Origin: an uncultured Acidimicrobiales bacterium
Lineage (GTDB): Bacteria; Actinomycetota; Acidimicrobiia; Acidimicrobiales; SZUA-35
Length of the DNA: 64,000 nucleotides
Reading direction: 5' to 3'
NCBI GenBank assembly: GCA_963723995.1
Contig: CAVRSZ010000008.1
Coordinates: 462,555-526,554 of the forward strand
Each line of letters opens with the position of its first letter. The stretch's first letter is position 1. Position numbers and translations under genes: made by a program. Shown here in pieces: positions 1 to 21,761 of this stretch. The notes under the pieces are model-generated. The model searched no databases. It worked only from the letters and a program-made list of their open reading frames with translations, and was not told where the DNA came from.

Positions 1-147
1 TCGGTCCCATCGAGAGCACGCCAGGCGTTGACGGCCGCCAAACCGGCGGCGACGAGATACGCCACGACCGTGAGCCATCCGACGAAGGTAGGGTCGCCGA
101 TGCCGAAGTCGAAATTGACCTCACGGATTGTGTCGATCAGGTTCATG
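1..147 (-). CDS. N-terminal part of a membrane protein; the gene continues beyond the window start
   Basis: ATG at 147 on the minus strand. Translation MNLIDTIREVNFDFGIGDPTFVGWLTVVAYLVAAGLAAVNAW has a hydrophobic helix and G/C-rich third positions. It is absent from the ORF track because it has no stop in the window. Confidence 0.4.
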
Positions 148-420
148 GGAACCAGTACAGGTTGCACGAGGATCGCACGCGAGCCAACGCCGAAACGGGG
201 ATTAGCCGGCCTCTTGTTGTAACTTGAGGTGGTTCCGGGGTCTTGGCCAGACTCTGGGCCGGGGTTCCTCTCACGCTGGGGTTTGGAGCGGCAGACTCCG
301 ACTGCCACCGGCGCTGCCATCACAGATGGCACGCGAGCGAACAGGCCGTCACGGGACAACACGGCGATAGCTCAAACCAGCCAAATTCAGCGGTTCTTGA
401 TGCTCCCTGGACAAACGTCC

Positions 421-467
421 CTGGGCTTTTGATCCATTGGTCCTGGGTTCGATTCCCAGCGGGGGTA
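421..467 (+). other. tRNA 3'-end-like fragment (T-arm plus acceptor strand) without a complete cloverleaf
   Basis: CTGGG-TTCGATT-CCCAG T-arm at 443-459, followed by CGGGGGT-A. No matching 5' acceptor strand or D-arm could be folded upstream. Confidence 0.4.
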
Positions 468-613
468 CGAGCACGGACGGCAGAGCGGGTCCAACTGGCG
501 TTGGCTGAAACGTCCCTGGCTGCCAGCTCCGTGTTCGAGTTCTGCCCCACTCGGTGTACGTATGAGCTGCGGAGCAGCTTCTGGCCACGGCTGACAGCGA
601 CGATTGAGACCAC

Positions 614-885
614 GAAGCGTGCGCCGGCTGCCCGAGTCCCATCCCCGACCGCTGGTCGCCAGTCCGCTTGTCGTGGCCGAGGCCGGCTGGCTGATTCGCC
701 GCCAGCTGGATGCCCGGGGCGGAGTCCATGTTGTATGAACCGATTGCAGGCGGCGACATCGCCGTCGGACATCTGACTGCGGCCGATTGGCAACGAGTGG
801 CGGAGTTGACCATCAACAACGCCGTCCTTCGCTTGGATGCTGCTGCCGACGCATCCATAGTGGTGTTGGCGGAACGGTTCTCGGC
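614..885 (+). pseudogene. degraded PIN-domain (VapC-like) toxin remnant, frameshifted and 3'-truncated
   Basis: Two frames join to give ...HPRPLVASPLVVAEAGWLIRRQLDAR / MLYEPIAGGDIAVGHLTAADWQRVAELTINNAVLRLDAAADASIVVLAERF. This is the typical central and C-terminal PIN pattern (..vvaE..yl... / DAs.vaLAER). No intact N-terminus or C-terminus is present. Confidence 0.35.
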
Positions 886-1305
886 CAAGCACTGGCCTGG
901 GGCCTACAAGGCGAACCGCGCCGCAAGCCCGATCATCCCAAGGCCGGGTAGCCATATTGACCTCCCCGGTAGAGCGATGACGACCCACACCAGTAAGAGG
1001 AAAGGATCAGCGCTGCAGTGTTCGGAAACCGCCGCGCCCCATTTCTGATCGCCCGAAACTCTGAGCCCAGATCGAAAGCCGTCGCCCCATTGGCAAGTCC
1101 TCCAACTGCCTACCCCCCCTAGGTTGCGATGAGCAACCGCGAGAGTCGAAATCTTGCAGGGACGCAACTGGCGCCGGACGACGCGCTGATAGCCCGACTG
1201 ATACCCATCACGTTCTAGCCGGTGCCAACGCTGCTTGGCGCCTAGGGGCAGATTCACCGCTGGATCAGGGCTTTGCGGCTCCCGCCGGCCACATAGTCCG
1301 GGCTA

Positions 1306-1356
1306 GGAAAGCGTGTGAAGGGAGACCTTCCGTGGGTTCGAATCCCACCTCCTCCG
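1306..1356 (+). other. partial tRNA-Ser(GGA) 3' half (att-like remnant), copy 1
   Basis: GGAAA-GCGTG (anticodon-loop end plus 3' anticodon stem), a long variable arm GAAGG-GAGA-CCTTC, T-arm GTGGG-TTCGAAT-CCCAC and acceptor CTCCTCC-G. The 5' half is absent. Confidence 0.6.
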
Positions 1357-1751
1357 CGCCGGTCGTCCGGAGGACGACCTAACCGAGTTGCTCGCTTCGC
1401 TCACAACGTCGCTGGCTGTCCGCCAGTTGTCGGGGTTCGGACTTTGTGGCATGAGGTTTGCGCCGGTCGTCCGGAGGACGACCTAACCGAGTTGCTCGCT
1501 TCGCTCACAACGTCGCTGGCTGTCCGCCAGTTGTCGGGGTTCGGACTTTGTGGCACGAGGTTTGCGCCGGTCGTCCGGAGGACGACCTAACCGAGTTGCT
1601 CGCTTCGCTCACAACGTCGCTGGCTGTACGCCAGTTGTCGGGGTTCGGACTTTGTGGCACGAGGTTTGCGCCGGTCGTCCGGAGGACGACCTAACCGAGT
1701 TGCTCGCTTCGCTCACAACGTCGCTGGCTGTACGCCAGTTGTCGGGGTTCG
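1357..1751. repeat. tandem repeat, 104-bp unit, about 3.8 copies
   Basis: Unit starts at 1357, 1461, 1565 and 1669 (exact 104-bp spacing), with only 1-2 substitutions per copy. Each unit holds a perfect hairpin GGTCGTCC-GGA-GGACGACC and a second hairpin CTGGC-TGT(C/A)C-GCCAG. Confidence 0.95.
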
Positions 1752-1818
1752 AACCCCTTCTTCTCCGCTGCGAGACGTGGCAATGTATCTCGTTCGAACC
1801 CAGCTGTCTGATTGGAGT

Positions 1819-2220
1819 TCAGAAGGCTTGGATCTGCACCTGGGGATGATCAGCTGATAGCTCGGTCAGATCCTCTGGGTCTCCAGTCAGGATGAGTGCG
1901 TCTCCCAGGCGGATCGCGATGGCGACAAGAAGGGCATCGATCGTCGAGGTCGATCCAACAGCTCCGAGCAGTGCGCCAGCCAATCGCCCATCGTGTTCGA
2001 TCACCGGCACTACTTCGCCAACGGCCTTGACGATCCGGTTGACAGGAGCGTCAGTGGCCTTGCCGCGAACTGTTTCAGCGAGCACCACTGAAGGAATGCA
2101 CGCGTCGACTCCGGCCTCCCATGCGGCTGTCAACACGGCACGGGGCCTGGCGTCATTGCGGGACAGCGCGATGATCGCCCCACTATCGAGGATGAGTCGA
2201 CTCGGCGCTAGTTTCGCCAA
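1819..2220 (-). CDS. vapC: PIN-domain ribonuclease toxin VapC
   Basis: 133 aa. It has the LILDSGAII N-terminal acidic motif and the ...DALLVAIAIRLGDALILTGDPEDL C-terminal PIN pattern. It overlaps the upstream antitoxin gene by 13 nt. Confidence 0.8.
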   Translation of the reverse strand: MAKLAPSRLILDSGAIIALSRNDARPRAVLTAAWEAGVDACIPSVVLAETVRGKATDAPVNRIVKAVGEVVPVIEHDGRLAGALLGAVGSTSTIDALLVAIAIRLGDALILTGDPEDLTELSADHPQVQIQAF

Positions 2221-2426
2221 AGTTCTCGGGCGGCATCGAGGAGCTCGGCAGGGACGGGGCCAGCTTCAGCATCCATTGAGTCGAGCAGGTCCCGCAGGCG
2301 ATCGTGCTGGAGCTGGCGGCGAAGCGCAGTCGACACATAGGATGAAAGCTCGCGCTTACCAACGCGACTTCGTGCTTCTTCGAGCGCCTTCTCGTCCAGG
2401 CTCAGTGACACTTTGGCTACGGTCAT
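2208..2426 (-). CDS. vapB: ribbon-helix-helix type antitoxin VapB
   Basis: 72 aa; MTVAKVSLSLDEKALEEARS... has an RHH-like N-terminus. It lies immediately upstream of, and overlapping, the PIN gene. Confidence 0.7.
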   Translation of the reverse strand: MTVAKVSLSLDEKALEEARSRVGKRELSSYVSTALRRQLQHDRLRDLLDSMDAEAGPVPAELLDAARELWRN

Positions 2427-2433
2427 ATCTTTA

Positions 2434-2450
2434 TCCTACTTTGAGTAGGA
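2434..2450. promoter_or_regulatory. palindromic operator candidate of vapBC-1
   Basis: TCCTACT-TTG-AGTAGGA, perfect 7-bp arms, 8 nt upstream of the vapB start. A near-identical palindrome precedes the second vapBC operon. Confidence 0.6.
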
Positions 2451-2665
2451 ATAGCTGGCAAGTGAAGCGTGCCTCAGTGGGGACATGGGACGATCAGACG
2501 ACGCCGAACGAGGCGACCACGACGGAGTCTGCCAAATCCTCGAACGAGTCCGGCAGTGGATGGACGCCCTCCCATACCCTGATAATCCCGGCAACCCACT
2601 CCAAGACAGCCTCAGATCCTCCAAATTGAGCGCTTCACAGCACTGACTGCGCAACAGATCCAGAC

Positions 2666-2715
2666 TTGGAAAGCGTGTGAAAGGAGACCTTCCGTGGGTT
2701 CGAATCCCACCTCCT
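2666..2715 (+). other. partial tRNA-Ser(GGA) 3' half (att-like remnant), copy 2
   Basis: TTGGAAA-GCGTG-T-GAAAGGAGACCTTC-C-GTGGGTTCGAATCCCAC-CTCCT. It is nearly identical to 1306-1356, with one substitution in the variable arm and a divergent acceptor end. No 5' half is present. Confidence 0.6.
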
Positions 2716-2963
2716 TAGCGTCGTATGGTGGTTCGGGACATGTGCAACGCATGGTTCGCGCCATCTGCAAGGGTGACGGGCATGCTCGGGAGGCATGTCG
2801 ATGGCAGCTGCTCCCAAGCCGATTGGCAGACCGATGCTGACGCAACCGTGTTCCGCCCAGGCAGTGCGGGCTTCGGCTCCGAACGACGACCTCGTCTCTG
2901 ATCGAGTTCCCGGTCTTGCCAGCAGTCAACATCTGTATATATATGAGGGTGATGTGATACATA

Positions 2964-3314
2964 CTGAGGTGGTGGACCAAGCGACTCGTTGACATCGATG
3001 ATGCCCTCTTGGAGCGGGCACGAACTGCCTGTGATGAACGATCCATCAAAGCGACGGTTGAGGCTGGCTTGAAGGCGCTCGCCGACAGGGCTGCTGGAGT
3101 CGACCACATCCGAGTTCTGAGACAACTACGACCGGATCGCAGCCGTAACCGGCCGGCCGACCACCTGGGTGGCCGACCGCGGCTCCCTGCCACATTGAAC
3201 CACCAGGAACGTTCCTCGCCTGTTGTCGGCGCTATGACTCCGAACGCCGTGGCACCAGGTCTCCAAATCCGGGAGAGAATGCGATTCCGCCGCCGGCCGG
3301 CTAGATGTTGCTGA
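2964..3314 (+). pseudogene. orphan VapB-family antitoxin-like gene (KRLVDIDDALLERA type); start and end uncertain, no cognate toxin
   Basis: Translation ..TKRLVDIDDALLERARTACDERSIKATVEAGLKALADRAAG..IRVLRQL matches the common DIDDxLLxxA antitoxin pattern. There is no canonical start codon, the C-terminal half is Arg/Pro-rich read-through, and an AT-rich promoter-like stretch lies at 2925-2965. Confidence 0.4.
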
Positions 3315-3714
3315 TTTGTATGTTTGGGTACGCTGCAGCCAGCTGTTCAAGATCCGCAACGTCGGAAGTCAAGATCACGCCTCCTCCGGTTTCGACGGCC
3401 GCTGCCACCGCATGAGCGTCGGCCAGAAGGTCAGATCCGGCGCCGGCTGCGACCAGCACTCCGCCTACGAGACGAGCGAAGGCGCGGTCGGTGTCACGCA
3501 AGACCACGCCTGTCTCTCGGCCCAACATCGCATCGACGATCTGACTTCGGTTTCTGCCTCTGTACAACTCCGCCAAGGTCACGCAGGTCACCACGACGTC
3601 GCGCCCAAGCCGTTCGGCCGCCGTCAGAGCGGCGCGGACATGGTTGAAGCCCGTGGAGTTTGGATCGCCAAGTGCCGAGACGGCTTCGGCGTCGAGTACG
3701 AGTCGAGGGCTCAA
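3301..3714 (-). CDS. vapC: PIN-domain ribonuclease toxin VapC (paralog 2)
   Basis: 137 aa; LVLDAEAVSAL... and ...DAHAVAAAVETGGGVILTSDVADL. It has a 4-nt overlap with the upstream antitoxin gene. Confidence 0.8.
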   Translation of the reverse strand: MSPRLVLDAEAVSALGDPNSTGFNHVRAALTAAERLGRDVVVTCVTLAELYRGRNRSQIVDAMLGRETGVVLRDTDRAFARLVGGVLVAAGAGSDLLADAHAVAAAVETGGGVILTSDVADLEQLAAAYPNIQISNI

Positions 3715-3938
3715 CGTAGGAGTTCGGAGTACTGTTCGATGAGTTGTTCATCGACAGGGCCGTGCAGCTCATCCAACTTCGCCAGCATTTCGCCCAGCGC
3801 TCGCTGTCGACGCCGCCGTACAAGTTCGTTGCGTATGGCTTCGTTGACCTGGGCGGACACCGCTTCCTCGCTGGCTTCCAGTTCGTCCACCAGGTCGGCG
3901 TCAAGCGAGACAGAAACCTTGCGTTTCGTCGTGGTCAC
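3711..3938 (-). CDS. vapB: RHH-type antitoxin VapB (paralog 2)
   Basis: 75 aa; MTTTKRKVSVSLDADLVDELE..., the same architecture as 2208-2426. Confidence 0.7.
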   Translation of the reverse strand: MTTTKRKVSVSLDADLVDELEASEEAVSAQVNEAIRNELVRRRRQRALGEMLAKLDELHGPVDEQLIEQYSELLR

Positions 3939-3945
3939 ACCGCTA

Positions 3946-3961
3946 TCCTACTTGGGTAGGA
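3946..3961. promoter_or_regulatory. palindromic operator candidate of vapBC-2
   Basis: TCCTAC-TTGG-GTAGGA, 8 nt upstream of the vapB-2 start. It has the same half-site as 2434-2450. Confidence 0.55.
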
Positions 3962-3990
3962 GTGAACGGTCAACAGGGGTTCGTACGTAG

Positions 3991-5157
3991 TCAACTGCTA
4001 CGAACCAGACGGATCGGTGAGTACCAGGTCGGGTCGCATCGGTCACCGATCCAGCCGGTGCGGTAACGAATCAAGGCCGTCAACGGAACGTGATGCCTTC
4101 GGGGAGGTGGACGGTCGGCGTCCTGGCCGTAGTCCTCATCGAGCCAGCGGGTGGTCTTCTCGGTGGCGTAGTTGAACCACAGATTGGCCCCGTCGACGGC
4201 CTCGATGATGGTCTCGATGCACATGTTGTCGGGGTGGTCGAAGTAGCTGCCGTTGGTCGAGATGAGGAAGTTGGTGCAATCGAGCCGGTCGAGAAGAGCC
4301 GTGCTGAGATTCCCGATGCTGCCGTGGTGGGCCAGCTTGAGAGCTTGGATCTTCAGCCGCTTCCCCGGCCCCGGGTAGTGGTTGAGTGACGTCACCAGCA
4401 CGTCATGGTGGGCATCACCGGCCAACAGAACCTTGCGGCGACCCACCTCGAGAACAAAGGCGATACTCGACCCGTTGGCCAGCGATCGATCGGGTGTGTC
4501 ATCGGTCCGCTCCTCGCCGTCACCGAGCAGATCGAGTTTTTCGTCAAATGGCCGCAGTCGCTTGTCCTTGGCCAACCGTTTGAGCGCCTCGTCGACATCG
4601 CCGGTGGTGTAGCCTTCGTCGGCGATCACGGAACTCCAGTTCTCCAGCAAGGCGACCAGTTTCACCTTGTTGGGGGACAGCACCCGCACCTTGGCCCCAC
4701 TGGGCAACGTGACCGGCTTGTCGGGCCGGGCCAGGATCGGGCCGCCGTCGAACGCCCGGTTCCAGGGGAGCCCCTTCTTGGTGATCAACGCCTGGAGGTA
4801 CTCGCCCTGTTTGGCTCCGAGGGCATCGGCCCCCATCACCTGATTCATCTGCTCGGTGCCGTTGAACCACACGTCGTTGAATTCGATGCCCAATGAGGGC
4901 AGATCCTCCTGCAGCAGTCGGATGACCCCGTCGATATGGTCGGCGTCGATGTGGGTGATGACCAGCGCCTCGAAGACCCGATCGTCGGCCGGCAGCTGCA
5001 ACAGGCGACGCATCAGGTTGTCGTAGGTGTAGAAGGGACCACCGTCGATCAGCATCCGGGCCGGGGCGTGGCCTTTCTTTCCGTAACGCACCAAAATTCC
5101 ATCGCCGTGTCCGGCCGGCAGCATCTCGATGGTTATGAAATCCTTGGGCGTCACCAT
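3991..5157 (-). CDS. metallo-beta-lactamase-fold hydrolase, third gene of the patatin-CHAT-MBL cassette
   Basis: Motifs ITHIDADHIDG, LLAGDAHHD and LAHHGS. The ATG at 5157 follows the upstream stop by 8 nt (or overlaps the alternative-frame stop). The last ~35 codons have poor GC3, and an alternative frame ends at ~4080, so the 3' end is uncertain. Confidence 0.75.
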   Translation of the reverse strand: MVTPKDFITIEMLPAGHGDGILVRYGKKGHAPARMLIDGGPFYTYDNLMRRLLQLPADDRVFEALVITHIDADHIDGVIRLLQEDLPSLGIEFNDVWFNGTEQMNQVMGADALGAKQGEYLQALITKKGLPWNRAFDGGPILARPDKPVTLPSGAKVRVLSPNKVKLVALLENWSSVIADEGYTTGDVDEALKRLAKDKRLRPFDEKLDLLGDGEERTDDTPDRSLANGSSIAFVLEVGRRKVLLAGDAHHDVLVTSLNHYPGPGKRLKIQALKLAHHGSIGNLSTALLDRLDCTNFLISTNGSYFDHPDNMCIETIIEAVDGANLWFNYATEKTTRWLDEDYGQDADRPPPRRHHVPLTALIRYRTGWIGDRCDPTWYSPIRLVRSS

Positions 5158-5164
5158 GGAGTGC

Positions 5165-7886
5165 TCAGTGCTCCAGTGCGTAGGTTCCATCGGAATAGGT
5201 CGTAACCAGAAGGCCGGTCACCCAGCCCTCGGCCATGGAGGTTCGCCGGGCCGCCAAGACCGCTTCGCCCACCGTCTTCGGGCCATCGGGACTGGCCAGC
5301 AACGCCGCTATCTGTCCGGCAATCGGTGCGGCGAACCGACCCAGGGTCGCCCCCACCGTGCCGATGACCACCGATGCTCCATGAGCGATGAAGGCGTCGA
5401 CGAACGAGTTGAGCTCGGTCTGGTTCGAAGCCGTGCTGCAGCCAAGGACCACCAGGATCGGGCCCGGTGGATCGGTGGCGAACGGTTGACGGACGAACGG
5501 GGTTCTGACGTTTCGTCGGCTGAGAAGGTCGGCCTGGCCGAGTTCGAGGTCGGTTCCTTCGGTATGTGTCAACAGGATGAGCACCTGGGGTGGTGCCTCG
5601 CTGTTGCCGACTCCTGCTCTCCAGTCGTTCCATTGCCGGACCGCCGGCGCCAGGTGCGGAACGACCGCCGAGATCCGCTCGTTCATGACCGAACGTCGGT
5701 TTGCGCCGGCCGAGCTTCGCCTTGTCAACCCGGTCGGACACGCCGATCAGCAACCGGTCGAGGCCACCGATTCCCTCGTCGGGATCGTGGACCCTATTGT
5801 GGATGACCGCAGGAAAGCCGTCGTCGTCTCGTTGCTGGTTGATCCGTTCGATTTCTTTGCGGATGCCCCAGAACCCGGCGGGACAGACCGGTACCTGATC
5901 GGGCACGATTCTGGTGGGATCGTACGGTTGGCACACACCGCAGTTCCCGGTGGCGAGAGCCTGATCGAAGTCGTCACACCAGGCAGCCTTGCCGGCGGGG
6001 GCATCTCGATCGTAGACGAGTTCGATCATGAGGCGGCTGTCCACTCGATCGAACAACGCCAGATGGACCGACGGGGCATTGATGATGGCCTGAAATCGTT
6101 CGCTGTCGTCGAGGGCCATCGATCCGATCAACGCCTGGAAGGCGTCGAATCCGGATCCGGCGATGTCGGTGAAGGTCCTGGCCCCTTTCGACGACTTCAA
6201 CCATGTGGCGCTGGCGGCATCGGATTGGGCCGCCACCAGTTTGGCCAGGGCCTGGGCGAAGTGATCGGCCAGACCGACGATCTCCATCGTTCCGAGTTCC
6301 CGGCGGAACAGGTGATTGACGCCGGCATCCTGTTCGAGGATCATCACCCGATCATCGGCTGTGATCCCCTGATCGATCAGCTTCGCCAGATCGACCAGTT
6401 CGGGTCCGACCACGAAGCGGATATCAACGGCGTCGGTTCGCCGAGGCCTTCCACCGTTGGGGGTGACGGCACCCTTGATGACGCCGCTCTGGATCACCCG
6501 ACCACCGATCACCAGCGCAACATTGAGGGTGAGCTCCTTGATCCGCTGGGGCACGTCGATGTCGAAACCGGCGGTCTCCGACAACTGGCTGGCCCCCACC
6601 TTCACCGTCCGGTTCATCATGGGTATGTCGTCGGCCCAGAGCAGGATGTCGGCCTCGGTAACGTTGACGAGATGCTCTCGATCGATGAGGGCCGGGTCTC
6701 CGGCCGGCGTCTCCGCACGCAGAAACCCGGTGGACCCGTCGCCGATCCAGATGTGGACCGTATGGCGCCTGCCGGCGGCAAAGGCGTGTTTCACCGCCTC
6801 CGGCTCGTCACGGAAGATGGCGGCCTGCAGCATGCGTCGAGCGTCCGGCTCAGGCAACAAGTCGATGCCGAGCTCGTTGTTGAGTCGCATGTTGCGAACG
6901 ATGTGGGCGCCGTAGGACTCCCGGTCGAATCGCTCCGAGGGGACCTCGGGAGCGAGGATGTCGGGAATGGCGTCAGTGTCGCGGACCGGCGGTCGTGGGC
7001 CGCGGGTAGGTCGGGCGGCAGACCTCAGGTGTCGCTCGTAGGACCCCCGCATCTGATCGATGACGTTGCCCAAGGGGGCCTCAAAGGCCGCAGTTCCACC
7101 GATGACAATCCCAGTGCCGGTCGATTTGCCCATGGCGACGTCGATCGGGTTCTTGTGGCTCAATTCCTCGACGAGACGTTCGAACCATCGGGCCAAGGGC
7201 CGGCCGCCGGCGACGTGGGGGAGCAAGAGAGCCGCCGCTCCGGCCCATTCCGCCAATTGGCCGGCCCGCTGGACGAAGTCGTCATCGAGCTTGTCACCGA
7301 CCAGGACCAGAGCGTTGACACGGAGTCCGCGGCTGTGCAGCAAGGCCTCGGCGTCGGCCACCGAGGCCAGGAACACGACGTCGAGAACAGTTCCGAGGTC
7401 AATCGAGTCAAGTGGGAGGAATTCGACCAGATCATCCATCCAGCTTCGATGATCTTCGGTCACGAGGTAGCGGACGAGGTCGGCCCCGACGGTGTCGGAC
7501 ACCCACGAAACCTGAAGGGGCCAACGCCACTTGGACTCGTCGGCCAGGTCCCGGTCGACCAGCATGATCGATCCGATGGACGACGCGCCACGCAACCGGC
7601 GGGCCAACTCGACGGTCTTGCGCGACGGCGCATCGTCCTCCACCATCACCCGATGGGTGGCCCAGGAGAAGCGTTCGATGTGCTTGCGCCACGCCCGTCG
7701 ATATCTCTCCGGGTTGCGTGTGACCGCAGTCGTATCGATCGATGTCACGTCGAGGGTTGACCAGCCGGGCTCACCGGTATGGCTGATGGCGCTCATCTCG
7801 TCCGGCCCCCACGAGTGTGACGAGGCCAGCGAGGCTCCGGCCAAAGCCTCGCCGTCAGGTAGTTCTTCGAACGTGGTCGTGGTCAT
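5165..7886 (-). CDS. large (~900 aa) protein with a C-terminal CHAT-type caspase-like protease domain and an uncharacterised N-terminal ~600 aa; frame disrupted near 5687-5725
   Basis: The 911-aa ORF is protein-like down to ...LLIGVSDRVDKAKLGRRKPTF and then turns Arg/Gly-rich junk. The 187-aa ORF in another frame continues with NERISAVVPHL...VLILLTHTEG...ILVVLGCSTA...AHGASVVIGT, the His/Cys dyad pattern of CHAT domains. Confidence 0.65.
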
Positions 7887-9118
7887 CAGGTGGTCCAGAA
7901 CTTCCAGAACGGCTTCTTGTCGGTCTCGGGCGCCGGGCCTGACAGCGGATGATCGGGGAAGGGCAGGCTCGGTGCCGGACCCATCGCCTCCTTGACCACG
8001 TAGCGCTCGAGGGCGGCGTCACACAGGCAGTAGCTGAAGTTGACCAACTGCTTCCTCCTGGCCTCGTCGATCGGGGCCAGGCGGGTCGAGATCGACTTGA
8101 GATAGTCGGTCCAGCTGTCGTGGACGGGAAGGGAACCGGCCTCGTACTCCGAGTGCACTGTGGAGATTCCCCAGAAGGCACCGTTCAGCGCGCCTCGTTG
8201 GTAGGCGCTGATCAATTCGGACCGTCGCAGTGACCGGACCTGATTGTCGGTGACCTTCCATGCTCGAATCATGTGTTGCAGCCAGTTGGTGGCCACATCC
8301 TCTTCGAAGTGGAACGGGCCGCCACCGTCGCTCACCAACTGGGTGGCGAATCGCTCGATGGGCTGCAGACCAAGATTGTCGTACACCCCTCCGTCGCTCA
8401 GCTGAAGCCGACGGGCGAACCGGGTCTTGTGCAGAACCGGTTCCTTGTCCCCTGCGAACAGCTGGCTGAGGTCGCTGTCGTCGTCGAGATCCATTGTCAT
8501 CGGCGACAGCACCGGTGGGAAGGCGGCCGACGCCGCCACCACCGATGACAGTTTGAAATCCGGATTGTGGCGAACCCCGATCCGGTAGTCGGCCGCATAG
8601 TCCCTGGAGAACCGAACCACCGCACCCGATCCGAGATTGGTGGCACAGAACACGAAGCGGGGTGAACTCGGAAGGTCCCGAAGGGTGGCCCCGTCAAACC
8701 ACTCGTCGTAGGTCTTCAGCACCGTGCCGGCAATCGAACGGCGGGGCGTGAGCAGACCGCCGACGATCCCCTTGGCATCGAGGAGGGTGTCGGCTCGTCG
8801 CATCAACGGCCGGGCGAGCAATCGGTCGAACCTGTCGGTGTCGACCGGGCCGGCCATCAGCTCGTCCCAAACCAGGGCCAGGTGAGCACTGGCGATGGAG
8901 CCACCGGACACGCTGGAGATCCGGGCCACCTTCTGCAGCGCCCCCACCTCATACAACCGCCTCAGCGCCCCGAGGTGGAACAGCATGGCCCGGTAGCCGC
9001 CGCCGGAGAGGGCCAAGCCGGCGGCGGACTCCTTGTCTGCCTCACCATCAGCCAGCCGGGGCACGACCTCCGGCAGGGATTTCCCGAACAGATCGACAAA
9101 AGACGGCGTGGATGGCAA
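7886..9118 (-). CDS. patatin-like phospholipase
   Basis: 410 aa; LSGGGYRA oxyanion motif, SSVSGGS nucleophile elbow and SDGGVYDNLG catalytic Asp motif. Its stop shares one base with the start of the next gene (TGATG). Confidence 0.8.
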   Translation of the reverse strand: MPSTPSFVDLFGKSLPEVVPRLADGEADKESAAGLALSGGGYRAMLFHLGALRRLYEVGALQKVARISSVSGGSIASAHLALVWDELMAGPVDTDRFDRLLARPLMRRADTLLDAKGIVGGLLTPRRSIAGTVLKTYDEWFDGATLRDLPSSPRFVFCATNLGSGAVVRFSRDYAADYRIGVRHNPDFKLSSVVAASAAFPPVLSPMTMDLDDDSDLSQLFAGDKEPVLHKTRFARRLQLSDGGVYDNLGLQPIERFATQLVSDGGGPFHFEEDVATNWLQHMIRAWKVTDNQVRSLRRSELISAYQRGALNGAFWGISTVHSEYEAGSLPVHDSWTDYLKSISTRLAPIDEARRKQLVNFSYCLCDAALERYVVKEAMGPAPSLPFPDHPLSGPAPETDKKPFWKFWTT

Positions 9119-9365
9119 TTGCCCTCCCCAGTATGTGGCGAATGGTACCGGGGCGCTTCATGCCGCCCGCTGACCGCCCGGTCCCGGTGGGTCGACAGTA
9201 CTACACGCAGCGGGGCCGTGTCATGGGCCGGAACGAGCGCGACGCGGCCCGACCATGTGTTCACGTCTCGGTCGTGTGATCAACGTCAGGTCCGCCGGCC
9301 GGGGGCCCGCCAAAGGCCGCCGCCCGCCCTTGACCACGGGCCGTCCGCCATGGGTACCATGCTGC

Positions 9366-9707
9366 ATGGCGCTGATCGAAGTCCGCGACTACCACTACGA
9401 CCCCGATCGCATGGACGCCTACCGCCTGTGGGCTGCCGAAGCCGGACAATGGCTTCGCACGCGCTGGGACGTATCCGGTTTCTGGTTGGACTCCGGTGAG
9501 GAGGGGCAGCTGTTCGGCGCCGACCCTCAGCCGTCGCCCCACGGTCCCGCCAACGTGACATGGACCATCAAGTGGCGTGATCGACAGGAGTGGGATGCGG
9601 CGTGGGACGCGTTGTGGAATGACGACGAGTGGAAGGTGCTCTGGGAGCGTCATCCCGGCTTCGAGGGCTACGGCCAGCTCTCGGTTCGTTTCCTCGATGA
9701 GGTCTGA
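9366..9707 (+). CDS. NIPSNAP-like small alpha/beta-barrel protein
   Basis: MALIEVRDYHYDPDRMDAYRLWAAEA...WRDRQEWDAAWDALWNDDEW; the internal ATG at 9366 was chosen within the 150-aa ORF. Confidence 0.45.
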   Translation: MALIEVRDYHYDPDRMDAYRLWAAEAGQWLRTRWDVSGFWLDSGEEGQLFGADPQPSPHGPANVTWTIKWRDRQEWDAAWDALWNDDEWKVLWERHPGFEGYGQLSVRFLDEV

Positions 9708-9743
9708 TCGCCCTCGTATTCCGTCGAGGGGGGCTGAGTTCGT

Positions 9744-10841
9744 GTGAGCCCCGCCGCACGCCGATCACGACGTGCGGTTCGGGATACCGCCGGTGGCGCG
9801 CCGGTACCGGGCCGCGCCTTCGGGCCCATGATCATCGCCGTCGCTGCGCTGGCGGTCTTCACCGCCCTGTTCGTGGGGATCGGACTTGGTGGCTGGGGTC
9901 CGCCCGCGGACTACGAGCCCGCCATCGGCCAGGCTTCCCGCTGGTGCGAGCGTGTCTCCGCCGGTTTCCTCCGGGAGCCGGTCAACACGCTGGGCAACCT
10001 CGGCTTCGTGGTCGCCGGTCTGACGATGTTCGGGGTACTCGTTCGGGACACGCAGCGGCAACGGCCAACGGTGAACGCCTTCATCGGCAACTCCTCGGTG
10101 GCCGTACTCTATGCCGGGGCCACGGTGTTTCTCGGTCCGGGCTCCATGGTGATGCACGGGACGCATACGTTCTTCGGGGCCTGGATCGACAATGTGTCGA
10201 TGGTCGCCTACATCATCATTCCCGTGTTGTGGAACCTGACCCGGCTCGGAGGCTGGTCGCGCCGCACCTTCTTCACCACCTACGCCTCGGTGCTCGTGCT
10301 GTACTCGGCCGGGTACTGGTTCATCGCCCCCGACCTCGGCATCGGATTCGAGTTGTTCGAGGTCTCGATCCCGCTCTGGATCATCTCCGAAGTGGTGTAC
10401 CGGTGGTGGTCGCCGGTAACCCGGCTGCTCTCCGGGTTCGTGGGGTTCGTGGTCGCCGCCACCTTCGGAATCTTCCCGGCCGAGATGATCGACCACGCGG
10501 GGGACTACTGGTGGGTGTTCCTGTTCTGGCTCCCGGCTGCGCTGGCCCGTGCCCCGGCAACAGAACGGCGGCGCTACACGCCATGGTTCTGGGTTGGGAT
10601 CGCTTCGTTCCTGCTGGCCTACGCCATCTGGTTGACCGGCAGCCCCGGGCATGAGTTGTGCGACCCGGACTCGTTGATCCAGGCCCACGCCATCTGGCAT
10701 CTGCTCTCGGCGCTTGCGACGTGGAGCCTTTTCCTGTTCCTGCGTACCGAGCACCCGATGAATCCTGACGAACTCAAGGCTCCGTGCAGCGAAGGATCAA
10801 CGCTTGTTCGGAGTCGATCCGATCGGGGCTGGAACCGATGA
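9744..10841 (+). CDS. ceramidase-family integral membrane protein
   Basis: Multi-pass hydrophobic profile. The WCE..(x)..EPVNTLGNL motif resembles the N-terminal WCE/NT.SN signature of alkaline ceramidases, and conserved His residues occur (MHGTH, AIWH). The start is uncertain (ATG near 9828 is possible). Confidence 0.5.
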   Translation: MSPAARRSRRAVRDTAGGAPVPGRAFGPMIIAVAALAVFTALFVGIGLGGWGPPADYEPAIGQASRWCERVSAGFLREPVNTLGNLGFVVAGLTMFGVLVRDTQRQRPTVNAFIGNSSVAVLYAGATVFLGPGSMVMHGTHTFFGAWIDNVSMVAYIIIPVLWNLTRLGGWSRRTFFTTYASVLVLYSAGYWFIAPDLGIGFELFEVSIPLWIISEVVYRWWSPVTRLLSGFVGFVVAATFGIFPAEMIDHAGDYWWVFLFWLPAALARAPATERRRYTPWFWVGIASFLLAYAIWLTGSPGHELCDPDSLIQAHAIWHLLSALATWSLFLFLRTEHPMNPDELKAPCSEGSTLVRSRSDRGWNR

Positions 10842-11027
10842 CGTCGCCGAGGATGCGTTTTGATCGAGTCCGCCGGAAATCGCTCAAGTATCGGAGCGGG
10901 GCGGTCGATAGCAGAGTCGTACAGGCAAGACGAGGCATAGATCCATCCGGGTGAAACGTGGTCGCCTGCCCGGGCGGGGAGCCAGTGGCGAAACCGGCGT
11001 GTTGCACCAACCAACACGGAGCCTGCA

Positions 11028-11231
11028 ATGAAGAAGCATTCACTCACCCGACGCATCAGCGGCGCCATTCTCGCCGCATCCCTCTCCCTCGCCGGGCTGG
11101 CCGTCGCGGGCGGCATCGATCTGCACGACGAGCCGGATCAGGTCGAGGAAGTCGCCGGCGCCACCTGGAGCCGCCCGATGATCATCGGCGGAAAAGGCGG
11201 GGCGGAGACCCAAGGTGCCACCTGGTCGTGA
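11028..11231 (+). CDS. small secreted peptide (67 aa) with a signal peptide and two GATWS motifs
   Basis: MKKHSLTRRISGAILAASLSLAGLAVAGG signal-like N-terminus, GGAG-like RBS 8 nt upstream, and the repeat ..VAGATWS..QGATWS at the C-terminus. Confidence 0.5.
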   Translation: MKKHSLTRRISGAILAASLSLAGLAVAGGIDLHDEPDQVEEVAGATWSRPMIIGGKGGAETQGATWS

Positions 11232-11268
11232 CCCGTGCTTCGGCACGAGGTCGGTGCGGGAGGCGAAG

Positions 11269-12600
11269 CTAGAGTTCGGCCGGCGCCGTCTCCACCGACG
11301 TCGACCTTCCAGTGCCGTCGATGGCCGGATCTCCGGCGGCTCGGCGGGCCGGCACCGTCACCGCGATCATGAGCAGACCGAAACCGAGGAAACCCAGGGC
11401 AACCGGGGTCACCGTGTTCGAGACGACCTGATCCACGACACCGGCAAGCACGGCGCCAAGCACGGTTGGCACGGCACCGATGAAGGCCGAAGCCATGCCG
11501 GCCACTTGGCCGACCTGTTCCATAGCCAGCGAGTTGAGCAGCGCGGTGTTGCACACCAGGGTGGCCACCAGCAGCGAGGTCATGACGAAGAAGACGGGGA
11601 ACGGTGGTCGACCGTTCAGCCACAACGTCACGGCCACGTAGCCGACGGCCAGTGCCAGGAACGTCGCCTGGAGGACGTTCAGGGTCCGGCGCGACCCGAT
11701 GCGTCTCACCGCTCGGGAGCTGGTCACCGACGCCACCCCCATGCCGGCGGCGGTCAAACCGAACCAGAACGGGAACTGGGCTTCCCGGTCGTAGACCTCG
11801 GCGTACAGCAGCTGGCTCGACCCCAGGTAGGGGAGGAAGGCGGCGAAGGCGAAGGTGATGGCGGCCGTGGCCCATGCCGTCGACCGGGTGCGGGCGATGG
11901 CCCGGGCCCCGTCCACCACGGTGCCGAATCGCAACGCCCTGCGGCCCTCGAGCGGCAGGGTCTCCCGAAGCCGAAGCGACCACAAGCCGACACTCAGGCC
12001 GAAAAGGGCCGAGAACACGAATGGATAGCGCCATGATCCCAGCTCCAGGACCAGGCGACCGATGGTGGGGGCCACGGCCGGTACCATCAGGAACACACCC
12101 ATGACCACCGACATGACCCGGGCCATCTCGTCGCCCTGGTAGCGGTCGCGGACCACGGCGATGGACACCACCCGGGGCCCGGCCGCCCCCAGGCCCCACA
12201 GGAAGCGGAAGCCGAACATCACCGGCAGCGACGGGGCCAGGATGGTCCCGGCGGCGGCGACCAGGTAGAGCGCAAGACCGGCAAACAGCACCGGCTTGCG
12301 CCCGACGGCGTCGCTGATGGGGCCCCAGGCGATCTGGCCCAGGCCGAGCCCGAACATGTAGAACGTGACCAGCAGCGACACATCGGTGGCGTCGGCGGCC
12401 AGATCGAAGGCATCACGGATGAGCCCGAACGCCGGCAGCATCACGTCGATGGCGATGGCGTTCAGGGCCGACAGGGCGGCCATGAGGACAATGAACTCAC
12501 GGTCGCCGACGCGATAGGACGATGTGGTCGACGACGCGTCCATTGACTGCACGCTAACCCGTGCCGCGACCGAACCCTGCACCCGGGTGTCGCACGACAC
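11269..12600 (-). CDS. MFS transporter (12-TMS drug/H+ antiporter type)
   Basis: 443 aa; hydrophobic repeats and a GPISDAVGRKP loop motif typical of MFS. The start is uncertain (ATG at 12543 is possible). Confidence 0.75.
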   Translation of the reverse strand: MSCDTRVQGSVAARVSVQSMDASSTTSSYRVGDREFIVLMAALSALNAIAIDVMLPAFGLIRDAFDLAADATDVSLLVTFYMFGLGLGQIAWGPISDAVGRKPVLFAGLALYLVAAAGTILAPSLPVMFGFRFLWGLGAAGPRVVSIAVVRDRYQGDEMARVMSVVMGVFLMVPAVAPTIGRLVLELGSWRYPFVFSALFGLSVGLWSLRLRETLPLEGRRALRFGTVVDGARAIARTRSTAWATAAITFAFAAFLPYLGSSQLLYAEVYDREAQFPFWFGLTAAGMGVASVTSSRAVRRIGSRRTLNVLQATFLALAVGYVAVTLWLNGRPPFPVFFVMTSLLVATLVCNTALLNSLAMEQVGQVAGMASAFIGAVPTVLGAVLAGVVDQVVSNTVTPVALGFLGFGLLMIAVTVPARRAAGDPAIDGTGRSTSVETAPAEL

Positions 12601-12617
12601 CGAGCGTCAGGATGACG

Positions 12618-12938
12618 TCACTCCTGCACGGTCGCTCCGGTCAGCCGACCCCGGTTCATCGTGCCGGAGAGTGTCACGGCGGTGTTCGACCACCGGACCG
12701 GTCCCAGCTGTTCCAGCTCGGCACCGGAAAGATCGAGACCATCGACGATGAGAAAGGCGCCACCGGGTTGTGGCGGGTACGACTCGGCCAGCGCCTCGGC
12801 CAGCACCACGATCCCGCTGTCCTCGACCAGGAATCCGCCGACGGTCACGTCGGTCCCGTCGGGCCGATCGGCGGCCTCGCCCGGGCTCATCACACCCCCA
12901 TCGTTGCCAACCGGAGCCGCCGGCGGGCCATCGGTCAT
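12618..12938 (-). CDS. hypothetical small acidic protein, translationally coupled to the upstream serine protease
   Basis: Its ATG overlaps the protease stop as ATGA (12935-12938). 106 aa, with good GC3 and no recognisable motif. Confidence 0.5.
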   Translation of the reverse strand: MTDGPPAAPVGNDGGVMSPGEAADRPDGTDVTVGGFLVEDSGIVVLAEALAESYPPQPGGAFLIVDGLDLSGAELEQLGPVRWSNTAVTLSGTMNRGRLTGATVQE

Positions 12939-13906
12939 TGATGGGCGTTCTTCCACGCCTGCAGGTTGTTGAACACCGCACCGTTGATCCTGGTGGCGGC
13001 GTTGAACGGTCGAACACCCACACCGTAGGCGTGAATGCCGACGGCGTAGCGGCTTCCGTCCCTTATGCGGTACACGGCACTGCCGCTCTGGCCGCCGGCG
13101 GTGTCGATGTCATAGAACATCTGCCGTCCGCTGACCGAGTTGATTCGGCGGGCCATGTACCACTGCTGGGCCCCCTGACCGAGATCACCGGGATACCCGA
13201 CCAGGTTCCCGACCACCGATCGAAGGGTGGAGTCGCCGTAGTTGGCGAAACCCAGCCAGCCGGTTCGACTGCCGAGATCGTCGCCCTCGTCCAGCACGAT
13301 CACGCCGTAGTCGTATTCGGCGTCGGGGTTGTCGGGCGGGCTCTCGGTCCAACCCCGAACACTGAAGAACCGGGCGCTGGTGGCCTGGCCGAACGGGAGT
13401 GCACTCTCGTTCCGACCGGGCATGACGACGATGCTTCGGGCCCATCCTCGGCGGGCCTCCACCGGTCCGTGGAAGAACAGGTTGTGTCCCGCCGTGGCCA
13501 GGACCCGAGGGCTGATGAAGAACGCAGTGCCGATCCATCGGCTCCCGTCTCGAGCGGTCACCAGGAGGGAGGCGTGGGCCCGCCACGGGTACCGGTCGGT
13601 CCCGGTGATGCGTGTGCGATTGTCGTCGCCGATGACGGACTCGGCGGTGATCAAACCGACGGCCTCGGCATAGGAGGCCTCGACCGCACTTCGCAGTCCG
13701 TCGGTGGCCGGGGCGACGGGAGCCGCCCCCATCTCGGCCGCCGCCCCGGCGCCGGTTCGAAGGGCGAATCCTTCCGCCGCCTGTTCCAGGCCGTCGTCAC
13801 CGGGGGCATCGGTCTCGCCTCCGGTGCCGACCGAGTCGGACTCTTCGACCTCGTCGCTCTCGGGATCGTGGTTGGAGACCGGTTCGTCCGGATTGTCGAT
13901 GGTCAT
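12935..13906 (-). CDS. trypsin-fold (S1, V8/Glu-specific-like) serine protease without an obvious signal peptide
   Basis: TAFFISPRVLATAGHN (His), DYGVIVL (Asp) and GGQSGSAV (Ser), with an acidic low-complexity N-terminus. The start ATG at 13906 was chosen because the rest of the 707-aa ORF is junk. Confidence 0.75.
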   Translation of the reverse strand: MTIDNPDEPVSNHDPESDEVEESDSVGTGGETDAPGDDGLEQAAEGFALRTGAGAAAEMGAAPVAPATDGLRSAVEASYAEAVGLITAESVIGDDNRTRITGTDRYPWRAHASLLVTARDGSRWIGTAFFISPRVLATAGHNLFFHGPVEARRGWARSIVVMPGRNESALPFGQATSARFFSVRGWTESPPDNPDAEYDYGVIVLDEGDDLGSRTGWLGFANYGDSTLRSVVGNLVGYPGDLGQGAQQWYMARRINSVSGRQMFYDIDTAGGQSGSAVYRIRDGSRYAVGIHAYGVGVRPFNAATRINGAVFNNLQAWKNAHQ

Positions 13907-14007
13907 GATGCCTCCTGAGTGCTGCCGCACACTGATACTAGGCCGATTCGACCGATGGATCGGGACTGTCGGGGGCGGTGCTGGCGCAGACCGGGTTGTG
14001 GGCGGTG

Positions 14008-15525
14008 TCAGCCAACCTCGCCCTCGATGATGCGACCGGTCAAGAAGAACGCAACCATCACGGCCGCCACCAGGGCTATGGCCGCGCCGATGAACGTCTC
14101 GGCCAGGGCCGAGGTGGAGATGTCGACGGTGGCGGCGGCCACTGCATCGCCATAGCCGGGGTCGGTGATGGGGGGAAGCTCGACCTCCGTGCGCAGGGCA
14201 TCGTAACGGCGGATACCCCAGGCTGTCAGGGCGGCCAGACCAAGGCTGAATCCGATCAGCCGGGCCACGATGACGAGACCGGCGGCGGTGCCTCGCTCGT
14301 TCTCGCCGGCGGTGTCGATCACGGCGGTGCCGGTGGGAGCGAGGGCCAGTCCGATCCCGGTGCCGACCAGCCCGAGCTGCAGCGCCATTGGGATGGCCGT
14401 GGTTCGGGGCGACCAGTCCAGCCCCATGATGGCCAGACCGACCGATGCGATGATGAGCCCCAGCATCACCGGCCGGCGGTAGCCGAGCTTGCCACTGGCC
14501 ACACCACCGGCATAGGAGGCGATCGCCATGGTCACGGTGAGGGCGGTCAGCAGCCAGCCGGACCGTACCGCGCTGCGGGCGATGCCGCCCTCCACGATGT
14601 TGACGAACAGCGGGACGTTGATGAGGGCGATCACCAGCCCGACACTCATGAGGCAGTTGACGGCGAGTGCCGGGCCGATCGAACGACGAGCCGTCATCAT
14701 GGTGGTCAACATCGGCTCGGCCGCCCGCCGCTCGTTCCACACCAGGACCGAGAAGGCAACGGCGGCCACCAGATACAGCCAGGGCCCGGAGAGGAAGCTG
14801 TCGGGGGAGTCGGTCAACTCCTCCAGCCCGGTGACCGTCTGTATCCTGGCCTCGCTCAGCAGGGCCACATTGAGCGAAATCAAACCGATCGTCAACAGGC
14901 CGGCGCCCCACCAGTCGACCTGTCGCTCCCGACGCTGCCCCGTGCTCAGGAGCCGCCAGCCCACGACGATTCCAGCCAGTGCCAGCGGGATGTTCAGATG
15001 GAACTGCCACTGCCACGACAGGTAACGGACCAGGGCCGCCCCGTACAGCGGTCCCCATACCCAGCCGATGGTCTCCACCGCTCCCAGGATGCCGATGGCC
15101 CGGACCCGTCTGGGACCGCGATAGAGGTCGCCGGCCACGGCAAAGGCGACGGGGACAAGGGCTCCCCCGCCCACCGCGGTCAAGGCCCGGCCCACGAGGA
15201 GGGTGGACAGGGTGTCGGCTCGGGGCACCACCACCGACCCGACGGCGAACACGGCGAGGGCTCCGACGAAGACGGCTCGACGTCCCACGATGTCACTGAT
15301 CCGACCGGCCAGGGGCATCACCGCGATGTAGGCGATGAGGTACACGTTGACGATCCAGGCGGCGTCACCGAGATCATCGGGAATGGCGAGCTCGAAGTCG
15401 TTGATCATGGGGCGGAGCATGGTGGCCACCACCATCAGGTCGTCGGCCGCCACGAAGACACCGAAGGCCACGATGGCCAGCACCGCCCATGGAGCCGGCT
15501 CTCTATCCGGATCAGCGTCCGCCAT
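14008..15525 (-). CDS. MFS transporter, 14-TMS DHA2 type (P55-like partner of LprG)
   Basis: Hydrophobic 505 aa with a GRISDIVGRR motif. Its start overlaps the LprG stop (TGATG). Confidence 0.75.
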   Translation of the reverse strand: MADADPDREPAPWAVLAIVAFGVFVAADDLMVVATMLRPMINDFELAIPDDLGDAAWIVNVYLIAYIAVMPLAGRISDIVGRRAVFVGALAVFAVGSVVVPRADTLSTLLVGRALTAVGGGALVPVAFAVAGDLYRGPRRVRAIGILGAVETIGWVWGPLYGAALVRYLSWQWQFHLNIPLALAGIVVGWRLLSTGQRRERQVDWWGAGLLTIGLISLNVALLSEARIQTVTGLEELTDSPDSFLSGPWLYLVAAVAFSVLVWNERRAAEPMLTTMMTARRSIGPALAVNCLMSVGLVIALINVPLFVNIVEGGIARSAVRSGWLLTALTVTMAIASYAGGVASGKLGYRRPVMLGLIIASVGLAIMGLDWSPRTTAIPMALQLGLVGTGIGLALAPTGTAVIDTAGENERGTAAGLVIVARLIGFSLGLAALTAWGIRRYDALRTEVELPPITDPGYGDAVAAATVDISTSALAETFIGAAIALVAAVMVAFFLTGRIIEGEVG

Positions 15526-16274: not shown

Positions 16275-16362
16275 CCCGTGAAGCGTAGGCCAACCGGCAA
16301 CCAAACCCCGTTCGAACCCGCCCCGTCATGAAGACCGTTCGGACGTCGGTCCCGGCCGAGTC

Positions 16363-17478: not shown

Positions 17479-17485
17479 GGACCGG

Positions 17486-20156: not shown

Positions 20157-20254
20157 CCAGGTATCCGGTGGGCAACGGTGACGATCACCGGCCCGTGACA
20201 GGAAGGCGTCGACGTCGCCCGTCCGCAGGGCGCAGGGTTCGCAGTCGAGGTTGA

Positions 20255-21679: not shown

Positions 21680-21761
21680 CCCCGTCCTTCCTCGGTTGAA
21701 CTCCGCTGGCCGCCTTGGGCCGAGCGAGCTCGTCGGCTACCAGTAGAACCGCCGGCGCCAA

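Follow-up and report, generated by a model that had tools for sequence, protein, structure and literature searches.

Nucleases of the metallo-β-lactamase (MBL) fold that are licensed by a protease were recognized only in 2025. Tuck et al. (Science 2025; PMC12799240) described the MBL protein as a pro-nuclease that is unlocked by a partner protease, with a caspase-family protease gene lying ahead of the nuclease gene in the so-called ‘canu’ loci. Their CanC is a pro-nuclease activated by the caspase CanAB, and the CanABC system of K. aerogenes defends against phage T4 in a manner that requires the active sites of both the caspase and the nuclease as well as both predicted cut sites (PMC12799240). 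Moreover, both gating insertions of the CanC-type nuclease hold conserved glycines, and the legend of figure S2 of the same paper mentions ‘caspase-/CHAT-’ proteases beside such nucleases. Evans et al. (PMC12642450) likewise found that cutting at two sites converts an MBL zymogen into a Zn-dependent double-stranded DNase (dsDNase), and they distinguished trypsin-, caspase- and subtilisin-associated MBL clades, of which clade 2 is encoded beside caspase-like proteases. The cysteine-protease branch of these systems has one studied example, CanABC. Here we describe a cassette of three genes encoding a patatin-like phospholipase, a CHAT-type protein of ~906 residues (hereafter the ‘big’ protein) and an MBL-fold protein, which is located in a 64-kb stretch of DNA (the window; 64,000 nucleotides of contig CAVRSZ010000008.1) from an uncultured Acidimicrobiales bacterium. 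The genes form a real and horizontally mobile module, for which homology, sequence motifs, fold, strict adjacency, gene fusions and co-divergence are shown, and by analogy with CanABC we consider it likely that this module is a CHAT-type variant of the caspase-nuclease (‘Canu-like’) kind of abortive-infection defence, with the patatin as a probable second effector.

The cassette occupies positions 3991-9118 of the window and comprises three minus-strand genes, packed stop-on-start in the order patatin, big protein, MBL. The TGA of the patatin gene (7888-7886) and the ATG of the big gene have one base in common, and the TGA of the latter (5167-5165) is followed, after 7 nt, by the MBL ATG at 5157. 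An earlier note on this DNA, written by a model from the sequence, had read the locus as just such a packed trio, with a patatin lipase whose stop overlaps the next start by one base, a ~900-residue protein carrying a CHAT-like His/Cys dyad, and an MBL hydrolase immediately behind it. Layout, overlap, patatin, dyad and MBL were all borne out by the present analysis; the ~900-residue protein exists as an intact 906-residue orthologue (P0001, encoded on the metagenomic contig L001), but in the window it is obtained, as the note had hinted, only after repair of the reading frame, one extra base being present at ~5694. The elements of the cassette are as follows.

7886-9118, minus strand: gene of the patatin-like phospholipase, 410 residues (Pfam Patatin, E 1.6e-19).
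5165-7886, minus strand: gene of the ~906-residue CHAT-type protease, disrupted (from open reading frames (ORFs), the intact orthologue P0001 with 94% identity, AlphaFold and Foldseek).
3991-5157, minus strand: gene of the putative MBL-fold pro-nuclease, 388 residues (PADLOC LmuA, Avs1a and RTasMBL; 35% identity to KaeCanC).
5690-5698, minus strand: frameshift site, one extra base (gapped blastn against L001).
5564-5566, minus strand: codon of the predicted catalytic His (His774 in P0001 numbering; LLTH), invariant in 131 family members.
5438-5440, minus strand: codon of the predicted catalytic Cys (Cys816 in P0001 numbering; VLGC), Gly815-Cys816 being invariant.
4816-4821, minus strand: predicted protease cut site 1 of the MBL protein, Leu113-Gly114 in the first variable loop (LG ~99% conserved in 67 sequences).
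4522-4527, minus strand: predicted cut site 2 of the MBL protein, Leu211-Gly212 in the second variable, acidic loop (LG 94-99% conserved).

The MBL protein links the cassette to the described systems. It carries the motifs THIDADH, GDAHH and AHHGS (HxDxDH, His69-His74, at 4936-4953), matches Pfam Lactamase_B (8.7e-6), and its profile finds the ComEC nuclease (MBL) domain among solved structures. The PADLOC models matched are LmuA (6e-68), Avs1a (1.5e-48) and RTasMBL (1e-45), that is, the MBL components of protease-containing Lamassu, AVAST and DRT systems, and the NCBIfam Avs1a model is hit with 218 bits, the equivalog cut-off being 420. When compared by BLASTP with KaeCanC, the sequence of which was taken from the supplement of the original paper, the window protein shows 35% identity over the full length (E 7e-57); the match to the trypsin-associated Bacillus Lamassu LmuA-H is weaker (27%, E 3e-31). 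The trio, which the earlier note could not assign to any named system, can hence be placed after all, since its MBL protein is a CanC homologue and MBL nucleases termed ‘caspase-/CHAT-associated’ have been known since 2025 (PMC12799240, PMC12642450).

An alignment of 67 MBL sequences (the window protein, CanC and 65 proteins from related loci) reveals two indel-rich stretches, each of which contains a near-invariant Leu-Gly pair, at residues 113-114 and 211-212 of the window protein. Gly114 aligns with Gly104 of CanC, the residue altered in the G104K cut-site mutant (PMC12799240). We therefore predict, from the alignment, that Leu113-Gly114 and Leu211-Gly212 are protease cut sites. At its C-terminus the window protein (388 residues) is longer than its homologues (355-366 residues): ~24 codons (3991-4065, minus strand) extend beyond the stop of all homologues, a six-residue insertion, RPPPRR, lies just ahead of this extension, and the new stop is 52 nt from the start of the vapB-like neighbour gene. 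The end of the MBL gene may have been remodelled by an adjacent insertion.

The big protein is the unannotated component. It has no match in Pfam, PADLOC or NCBIfam scans, and its family profile retrieved nothing when compared at sequence level with solved structures. A word-indexed search of 5.8 billion proteins returned six relatives only; exhaustive profile searching of 1.84 billion cluster representatives (50% identity) yielded 1,737 with E ≤ 0.001, 675 of them with E ≤ 1e-30, mostly of 880-1,000 residues and matching over nearly the full length. In 131 relatives Gly579, Glu622, Tyr625, Cys637, Cys668, Phe672, Trp752, His774, Gly815 and Cys816 are invariant, the His and Cys motifs of the family being (L)LxLxPH(T) and VLLLGC(D/E)T. 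Cys649 is nearly invariant in the same set, and Cys652 is invariant in the six closest relatives. Together with Cys637 and Cys668 these two residues form a cluster just before the protease domain (WCDDF...GxCxxC...VPVCPAGFW; window ~5880-5980, minus strand) which is modelled with a predicted local distance difference test score (pLDDT) above 90 and probably constitutes a structural zinc site.

Structure prediction supports the protease assignment. An AlphaFold model based on a six-sequence alignment was unusable (pLDDT 51.5); the model was remade with 78 sequences and reached a pLDDT of 85.8 and a predicted TM-score (pTM) of 0.76. At the N-terminus it starts with a helical segment, which is followed by an alpha/beta domain (~78-263); helices then lead to a beta-sandwich (~351-493), behind which come a helical bundle (~537-603), the Cys-rich stretch (637-668) and a final alpha/beta domain. 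In the latter, His774 is located at the end of beta-strand 768-776 and Cys816 right after strand 810-814, the His-then-Cys arrangement of clan CD. Foldseek searching of the PDB with this model placed Csx29/TPR-CHAT first (8eex_B, E 2.8e-6) and also retrieved separase and SAVED-CHAT; among the matches were 5fby_A (1.6e-5) and 8tl0_C (1.5e-3), and probabilities were 0.98-1.0. Pfam CHAT (PF12770) matches 9 of 51 relatives at a whole-protein E ≤ 0.05 (best 7e-7); P0019 scores 18.4 bits, below the 24-bit cut-off, and neither the window protein nor P0001 has a match. The PADLOC BovA model matches weakly in 4 of 10 family members scanned. The CHAT-type reading of the earlier note is supported by these folds, by the invariance of the His/Cys dyad (His774 and Cys816), and by the weak CHAT matches of some relatives.

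Relatives often align with the big protein only from residue ~620 or ~350 onward, and several have alternative N-termini (L042 at 5549-8674, P0043 and others), namely HEAT repeats, a STAND NTPase (NACHT, AAA_16, APAF1_C), a subtilase with pro-kumamolisin, or a Cpn60-like region, while retaining a module of ~290 residues with Cys cluster and protease. The partial alignments and the other N-termini together suggest a constant protease module to which a modular N-terminal part, for sensing or regulation, is attached. For the N-terminal region of the big protein, a P-loop NTPase was considered and rejected, since a Walker A motif is lacking and it is Trp, Pro, His and Asp that are conserved there.

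Their linkage argues that the big protein and the MBL protein belong together. Custom hidden Markov models (HMMs) were used to scan 80 metagenomic loci of distant relatives, which had been found with a 15-sequence subset; 61 unique loci have at least 1.1 kb of sequence downstream, and 59 have enough upstream room for a patatin gene. In all six close relatives and in 61 of 61 unique metagenomic loci, the next gene downstream of the big gene is that of the MBL protein, and the pairwise distances of the two proteins are highly correlated (r=0.91, n=55, Mantel p ≤ 0.001). Recurrence of the same pair or trio in about 80 independent loci implies that the arrangement is not due to chance. In two loci big protein and MBL are encoded as a single ORF (L054, 6674-10849; L063, 6941-11113), the L054 fusion being 1,392 residues long with Pfam Lactamase_B at residues 1060-1281. 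The 16.7-kb metagenomic contig L013 carries two copies of the system (4243-8237 and 12001-15140), the second of which has the order big-MBL-patatin on the opposite strand; a separate protein with CHAT and Laminin_G_3 domains adjoins the first copy.

It is against this linkage that one has to judge the proposal that the protease of the big protein has different targets (or is directed at itself or at the patatin), with the MBL protein being independent and merely co-transcribed, so that the operon would combine several effectors without zymogen activation. The protease family indeed differs from that of CanA, and in other systems CHAT proteases cleave proteins that are not nucleases, for instance Csx30. 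Adjacency in every one of the 61 loci, two fusions and strong co-divergence speak against this proposal, however, as do two LG motifs that are ~99% conserved within otherwise variable loops, one of them aligning with a validated cut-site residue of CanC. We hence regard independent action of the MBL protein as quite improbable.

The patatin gene is a different matter. Its product scores 71.3 bits against Pfam Patatin (cut-off 27.7), and the motifs SGGGYR, SVSGGS (Ser71, codon 8908-8906) and SDGG (Asp242, codon 8395-8393) are conserved among the 23 patatins found adjacent to the pair; score above the gathering value and motifs identify it as a member of PF01734. The protein is 95% identical to the patatin of L001 and 65% identical to the Acidimicrobiales orthologue in L002, bears a weak resemblance to the cPLA2 type (PLA2_B), and has no match in PADLOC and NCBIfam scans. 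Genes of the same patatin family are present upstream of the big gene in 18 of the 59 loci with room for one, and in three further loci such a gene lies downstream of the pair instead. Loci with a patatin are concentrated in one large clade and are also found in the clade of the window, and patatin distances track those of the big protein (r=0.85, n=16). With MBL linkage in all 61 loci and a patatin in about a third, the core of the system therefore consists of two genes, while the patatin is an accessory gene that marks a three-gene subtype. The earlier note had taken the trio as the unit and had suggested examining its co-occurrence across genomes: the pair of big protein and MBL is indeed obligatory, but the patatin is not. 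In two patatin-less loci of the window's clade, neighbour genes have sub-threshold matches to GDSL lipase (L008, 638-1519; 6e-5) and to a DUF900 alpha/beta-hydrolase (L006, 4049-5485; 9e-3), which is only a hint that lipid hydrolases may be interchangeable as accessory genes across loci.

By analogy with CanABC and the trypsin-MBL systems we infer the following course of events. The N-terminal region of the big protein, with its alpha/beta domain, beta-sandwich and helical bundle, would probably serve as sensing or regulatory part; a trigger, presumably phage infection, would switch on the CHAT/separase-like protease (His774/Cys816). The DNase encoded by the downstream gene would be made as an inactive zymogen, and the protease would cut it at the two loops with conserved Leu-Gly. 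The MBL nuclease thus freed would degrade DNA, so that the infected cell would be arrested or killed, and the product of the translationally coupled upstream patatin gene, where present, would most likely act as a second, membrane-directed effector of this one subtype. One may go further and speculate that the ~906-residue family represents a self-contained sensor-protease, the N-terminal ~600 residues of which would sense infection directly while the CHAT domain licenses both the MBL DNase and, in the three-gene subtype, the patatin, other lipases or alpha/beta-hydrolases possibly replacing the latter. We hold this extension for possible rather than probable. If true, it would imply a bacterial caspase-like cascade with dual execution, at DNA and membrane, and a new class of ATP-independent sensor.

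Distribution and genomic context of the relatives are those of a mobile module. Scanning 185,579 GTDB species representatives with the peptide patterns PVCPAGFW and FVVGPE, which are typical of the close clade, identified a single locus, in an Acidimicrobiales metagenome-assembled genome (MAG), where a gene for a transposase-like helix-turn-helix protein adjoins. ISL3 transposase fragments and a TIR_2 gene adjoin the locus L014, and a type I restriction-modification (R-M) system and a SLFN_AlbA_2 gene adjoin L096, a related contig being without R-M at the same site. On plasmid pMYCSM01 of Mycobacterium sp. JS623, the locus, with an MBL protein 46% identical to that of the window, is situated amid TIR-domain, caspase-family, TPR and WD40 genes, all annotated as ‘hypothetical’. 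Megablast of the cassette region against plasmids gave no match. In line with the suggestion of the earlier note, an island-borne conflict or defence cassette is supported by the patatin HMM, by fold and dyad, by co-inheritance over deep divergence, and by the occurrence of relatives near transposases and near genes of type I R-M systems, TIR proteins and caspases.

These observations bear on two further explanations. It might be argued that the genes form an ordinary metabolic or housekeeping operon, combining lipid hydrolysis and an MBL hydrolase with a scaffold protein, since patatin and MBL folds are common in metabolism and the right-hand neighbours in the window are transporters, a ceramidase-like protein and dehydrogenases. 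Such a role is very hard to reconcile with the sporadic distribution (the close clade being found in one of 185,579 GTDB species representatives by the two-peptide-pattern scan, and in six proteins of 5.8 billion by word search), with the variable genomic position, with matches of the MBL protein to nuclease-type, defence-associated rather than metabolic models, and with the probable decay of the window copy by a frameshift; we consider it highly improbable. Alternatively, the same biochemistry, i.e. a protease-licensed nuclease with or without a lipase, could serve a purpose other than defence against phages, such as regulated cell death in development or stress, addiction to a plasmid or island, or defence against other mobile elements. 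That many hosts of the relatives are soil and sediment bacteria, including Acidobacteriota/Terriglobia, in which systems are largely unstudied, that the cassette in the window adjoins toxin-antitoxin modules, and that some copies are plasmid-borne would fit this idea. However, CanABC, the nearest relative characterised so far, confers protection on its host against phage T4, relatives adjoin R-M, TIR and caspase genes, and tblastn against 50,697 phage genomes gave no homologue, so that we regard a non-antiphage role as unlikely, and defence against phages of the Canu-like kind as the preferred interpretation.

The copy in the window itself appears to be disrupted. The mechanically derived ORF 5151-7886 (911 residues) is out of frame and of low complexity beyond residue ~730, and the motifs LLTHTEG, VVLGCSTA and HGASVVIGT of the big protein are read in a different frame (ORF 5165-5728). 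Residues 1 to ~731 are hence encoded from 7886 to ~5695, and the catalytic C-terminal part follows, shifted by +1, from ~5693 to 5165. Contig L001, the DNA of which is 94.75% identical to the window across 6.1 kb, encodes the intact product; gapped blastn against it locates a single extra base, a T duplication, at ~5694 (ACGTCGG to ACGTTCGG), and intact homologues read KPT[ST]VM across this point. A programmed frameshift was rejected, since L001, at 94% identity, lacks the shift and no slippery run is present. At 9118 another single T is inserted, which converts the patatin ATG of L001 into an in-frame TTG and explains the different start codons; the TTG at 9118 is preceded by a ribosome-binding site, GGGGAGGG. 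The insertions could be real mutations or assembly errors, and as each is a T duplication, sequencing or assembly may be at fault at either position. Unless the extra base is a sequencing error, the cassette copy in the window is probably broken and inactive because of the frameshifted protease gene, that is, a decayed defence module.

To the left of the cassette lie two PIN/antitoxin (vapBC) pairs (1819-2426 and 3301-3938), as the earlier note had recognised, and two copies of a tRNA fragment.

1297-1361 and 2659-2723, plus strand: 3' part of a class-II tRNA, 65 nt, in two copies (89% alike; 0 expected by chance).

The fragments comprise the long variable-arm hairpin, the T-arm GGTTCGAATCC and the acceptor strand, of which Rfam recognises the T-arm only, and ARAGORN detects no intact tRNA over the 64-kb window; their identity as tRNA-Ser, given in the earlier note, is a tentative reading of the sequence. 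The earlier note had seen the cassette as flanked by such fragments: the two copies are real, but both are found on the same side, so that they mark a hotspot next to the cassette, which is therefore not bracketed. The arrangement points to repeated integration, and to decay, at a single tRNA hotspot. For the source genome, the cassette would probably represent a decayed defence module at a tRNA-associated integration hotspot. A further tRNA-like match at 402-467 is weak (23.9 bits) and below threshold. Starting within the 3' end of the first tRNA fragment is a plus-strand tandem repeat (1356-1751) with a 104-nt unit, 3.8 copies and 99% identity, and with a perfect hairpin of 8 bp, GGTCGTCC-GGA-GGACGACC, in each unit; the array has the appearance of a recently amplified stretch from just past the tRNA/att site.

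The GC content is lower over positions 1-8000 (0.60-0.64) than farther right (0.66-0.69), which, together with the vapBC pairs and the tRNA fragments, counts in favour of the defence reading. The right flank encodes a ceramidase-like membrane protein, major facilitator superfamily (MFS) transporters, an LppX/LprAFG lipoprotein, dehydrogenases and a protein with a bacterial microcompartment (BMC) domain. A c-di-GMP-II-GAG riboswitch aptamer is present at 10922-11008 on the plus strand (52.4 bits, gathering score 40, E 3.5e-8), between the ceramidase-like gene and an ORF of 67 residues (11028-11231). Farther right, in the region ~15500-21700, the genes of the LppX/LprAFG lipoprotein and the BMC-domain protein are accompanied by those of two dehydrogenases (one for aldehydes and a Zn-dependent one for alcohols) and by an Ldh/Mdh-like gene, a set reminiscent of actinobacterial metabolic loci of the microcompartment type. 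By its gene content this flank resembles an actinobacterial, probably Mycobacteriales, chromosome.

Several findings weigh against the assignment as a Canu-like defence system. The window's big protein is without a Pfam CHAT match, so that the HMM searches put forward in the earlier note recovered patatin, Lactamase_B and the PADLOC MBL models but not CHAT for this protein. Foldseek TM-scores are low (0.17-0.38), because the big protein aligns only in part, and hhalign comparison of the family profile with CanA and with CanB gave a probability of 0.1 each; with no sequence similarity to these proteins, their cleavage specificity is therefore not transferable. The patatin is missing from about two thirds of loci, and when the adjacent patatins were screened for an LG pair conserved within a loop, which might have pointed to cleavage, none that is convincing emerged and hence no sign of a protease substrate. 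The right flank is devoted to ordinary metabolism and transport, without defence genes. Finally, the frameshift at ~5694 means that no function can be claimed for the window copy.

Beyond this locus, the present analysis defines a large family of CHAT-type partners of MBL nucleases, which carry the database label ‘hypothetical protein’, and have no domain in the precomputed Pfam annotation of the relatives, a few of which match CHAT weakly on direct scanning; the big protein itself escapes the tools tried here (PADLOC, Pfam, NCBIfam). Concrete predictions follow for the dyad His774/Cys816, for the cut sites Leu113-Gly114 and Leu211-Gly212, and for the Cys cluster, and the recurrent addition of a patatin raises the question whether one protease may arm two effectors.

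When compared with other conflict systems, the big protein shares structural matches and the same His/Cys arrangement with Csx29/TPR-CHAT of the type III-E Craspase, with SAVED-CHAT of CBASS-like systems and with BovA of Borvo. In contrast to these, its N-terminal architecture is different, its surroundings contain neither a CRISPR array nor genes for gRAMP, a SAVED domain or a cyclase, and its inferred substrate is an MBL nuclease instead of Csx30 or another protease. Craspase and CBASS were also rejected as such, as PADLOC matches neither the patatin nor the big protein and the sole repeat array within positions 1-12000 is the 104-nt tandem repeat. With the CapV-type patatins of CBASS the cassette has in common a patatin-fold phospholipase as probable membrane-damaging effector in a conflict system, but it is devoid of a cyclase and its nucleophile motif is SVSGGS.

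The trypsin-MBL modules (Hachiman HamM, AVAST Avs1a/Avs2, Lamassu LmuA-H, DRT UG9; PMC12799240; PMC12642450; bioRxiv 10.1101/2025.09.03.673762) possess a homologous MBL zymogen and follow the logic predicted for the cassette, in which dual-site cleavage frees a Zn-dependent dsDNase. In the cassette, however, (i) the partner is a CHAT-like cysteine protease and not a trypsin-like serine protease, (ii) the nuclease gene is located downstream and not upstream, and (iii) there is no STAND, HamAB, SMC or reverse transcriptase (RT) sensor. AVAST type 1 was rejected in view of the Avs1a score (218 versus 420 bits) and of the gene neighbourhood, which comprises the patatin and the CHAT-type protein but no adjacent STAND NTPase; Lamassu was rejected as only the MBL protein matches PADLOC LmuA, with vapBC and the genes of patatin and CHAT-type protein beside it instead of an LmuB SMC-like ATPase. 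Lacking the partners that define these systems, the cassette is hence neither AVAST, Lamassu, CBASS nor Craspase.

The likeness to Canu is the closest: (i) the gene of an MBL-fold nuclease lies directly downstream of that of a clan-CD cysteine protease, here in 61 of 61 loci, (ii) the window MBL exhibits, at the level of sequence, the metal-binding motifs of CanC and two loops with conserved Gly, and (iii) the loci reside in defence-island or transposase contexts. Distinct from Canu, the protease, of ~906 residues, is CHAT/separase-like, bears a Cys cluster and has an extensive N-terminal region without annotation, whereas CanA is a 390-residue Peptidase_C14/MALT1-like protein with an immunoglobulin (Ig) domain, CanA hitting Peptidase_C14 and the present family hitting CHAT. 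Also, no CanB homologue is encoded here, and one subtype has a patatin attached, a component that goes unmentioned in PMC12799240 and PMC12642450. As orthology to CanA and CanB is not given, the cassette is therefore filed as a variant of the Canu kind and not as a member of CanABC.

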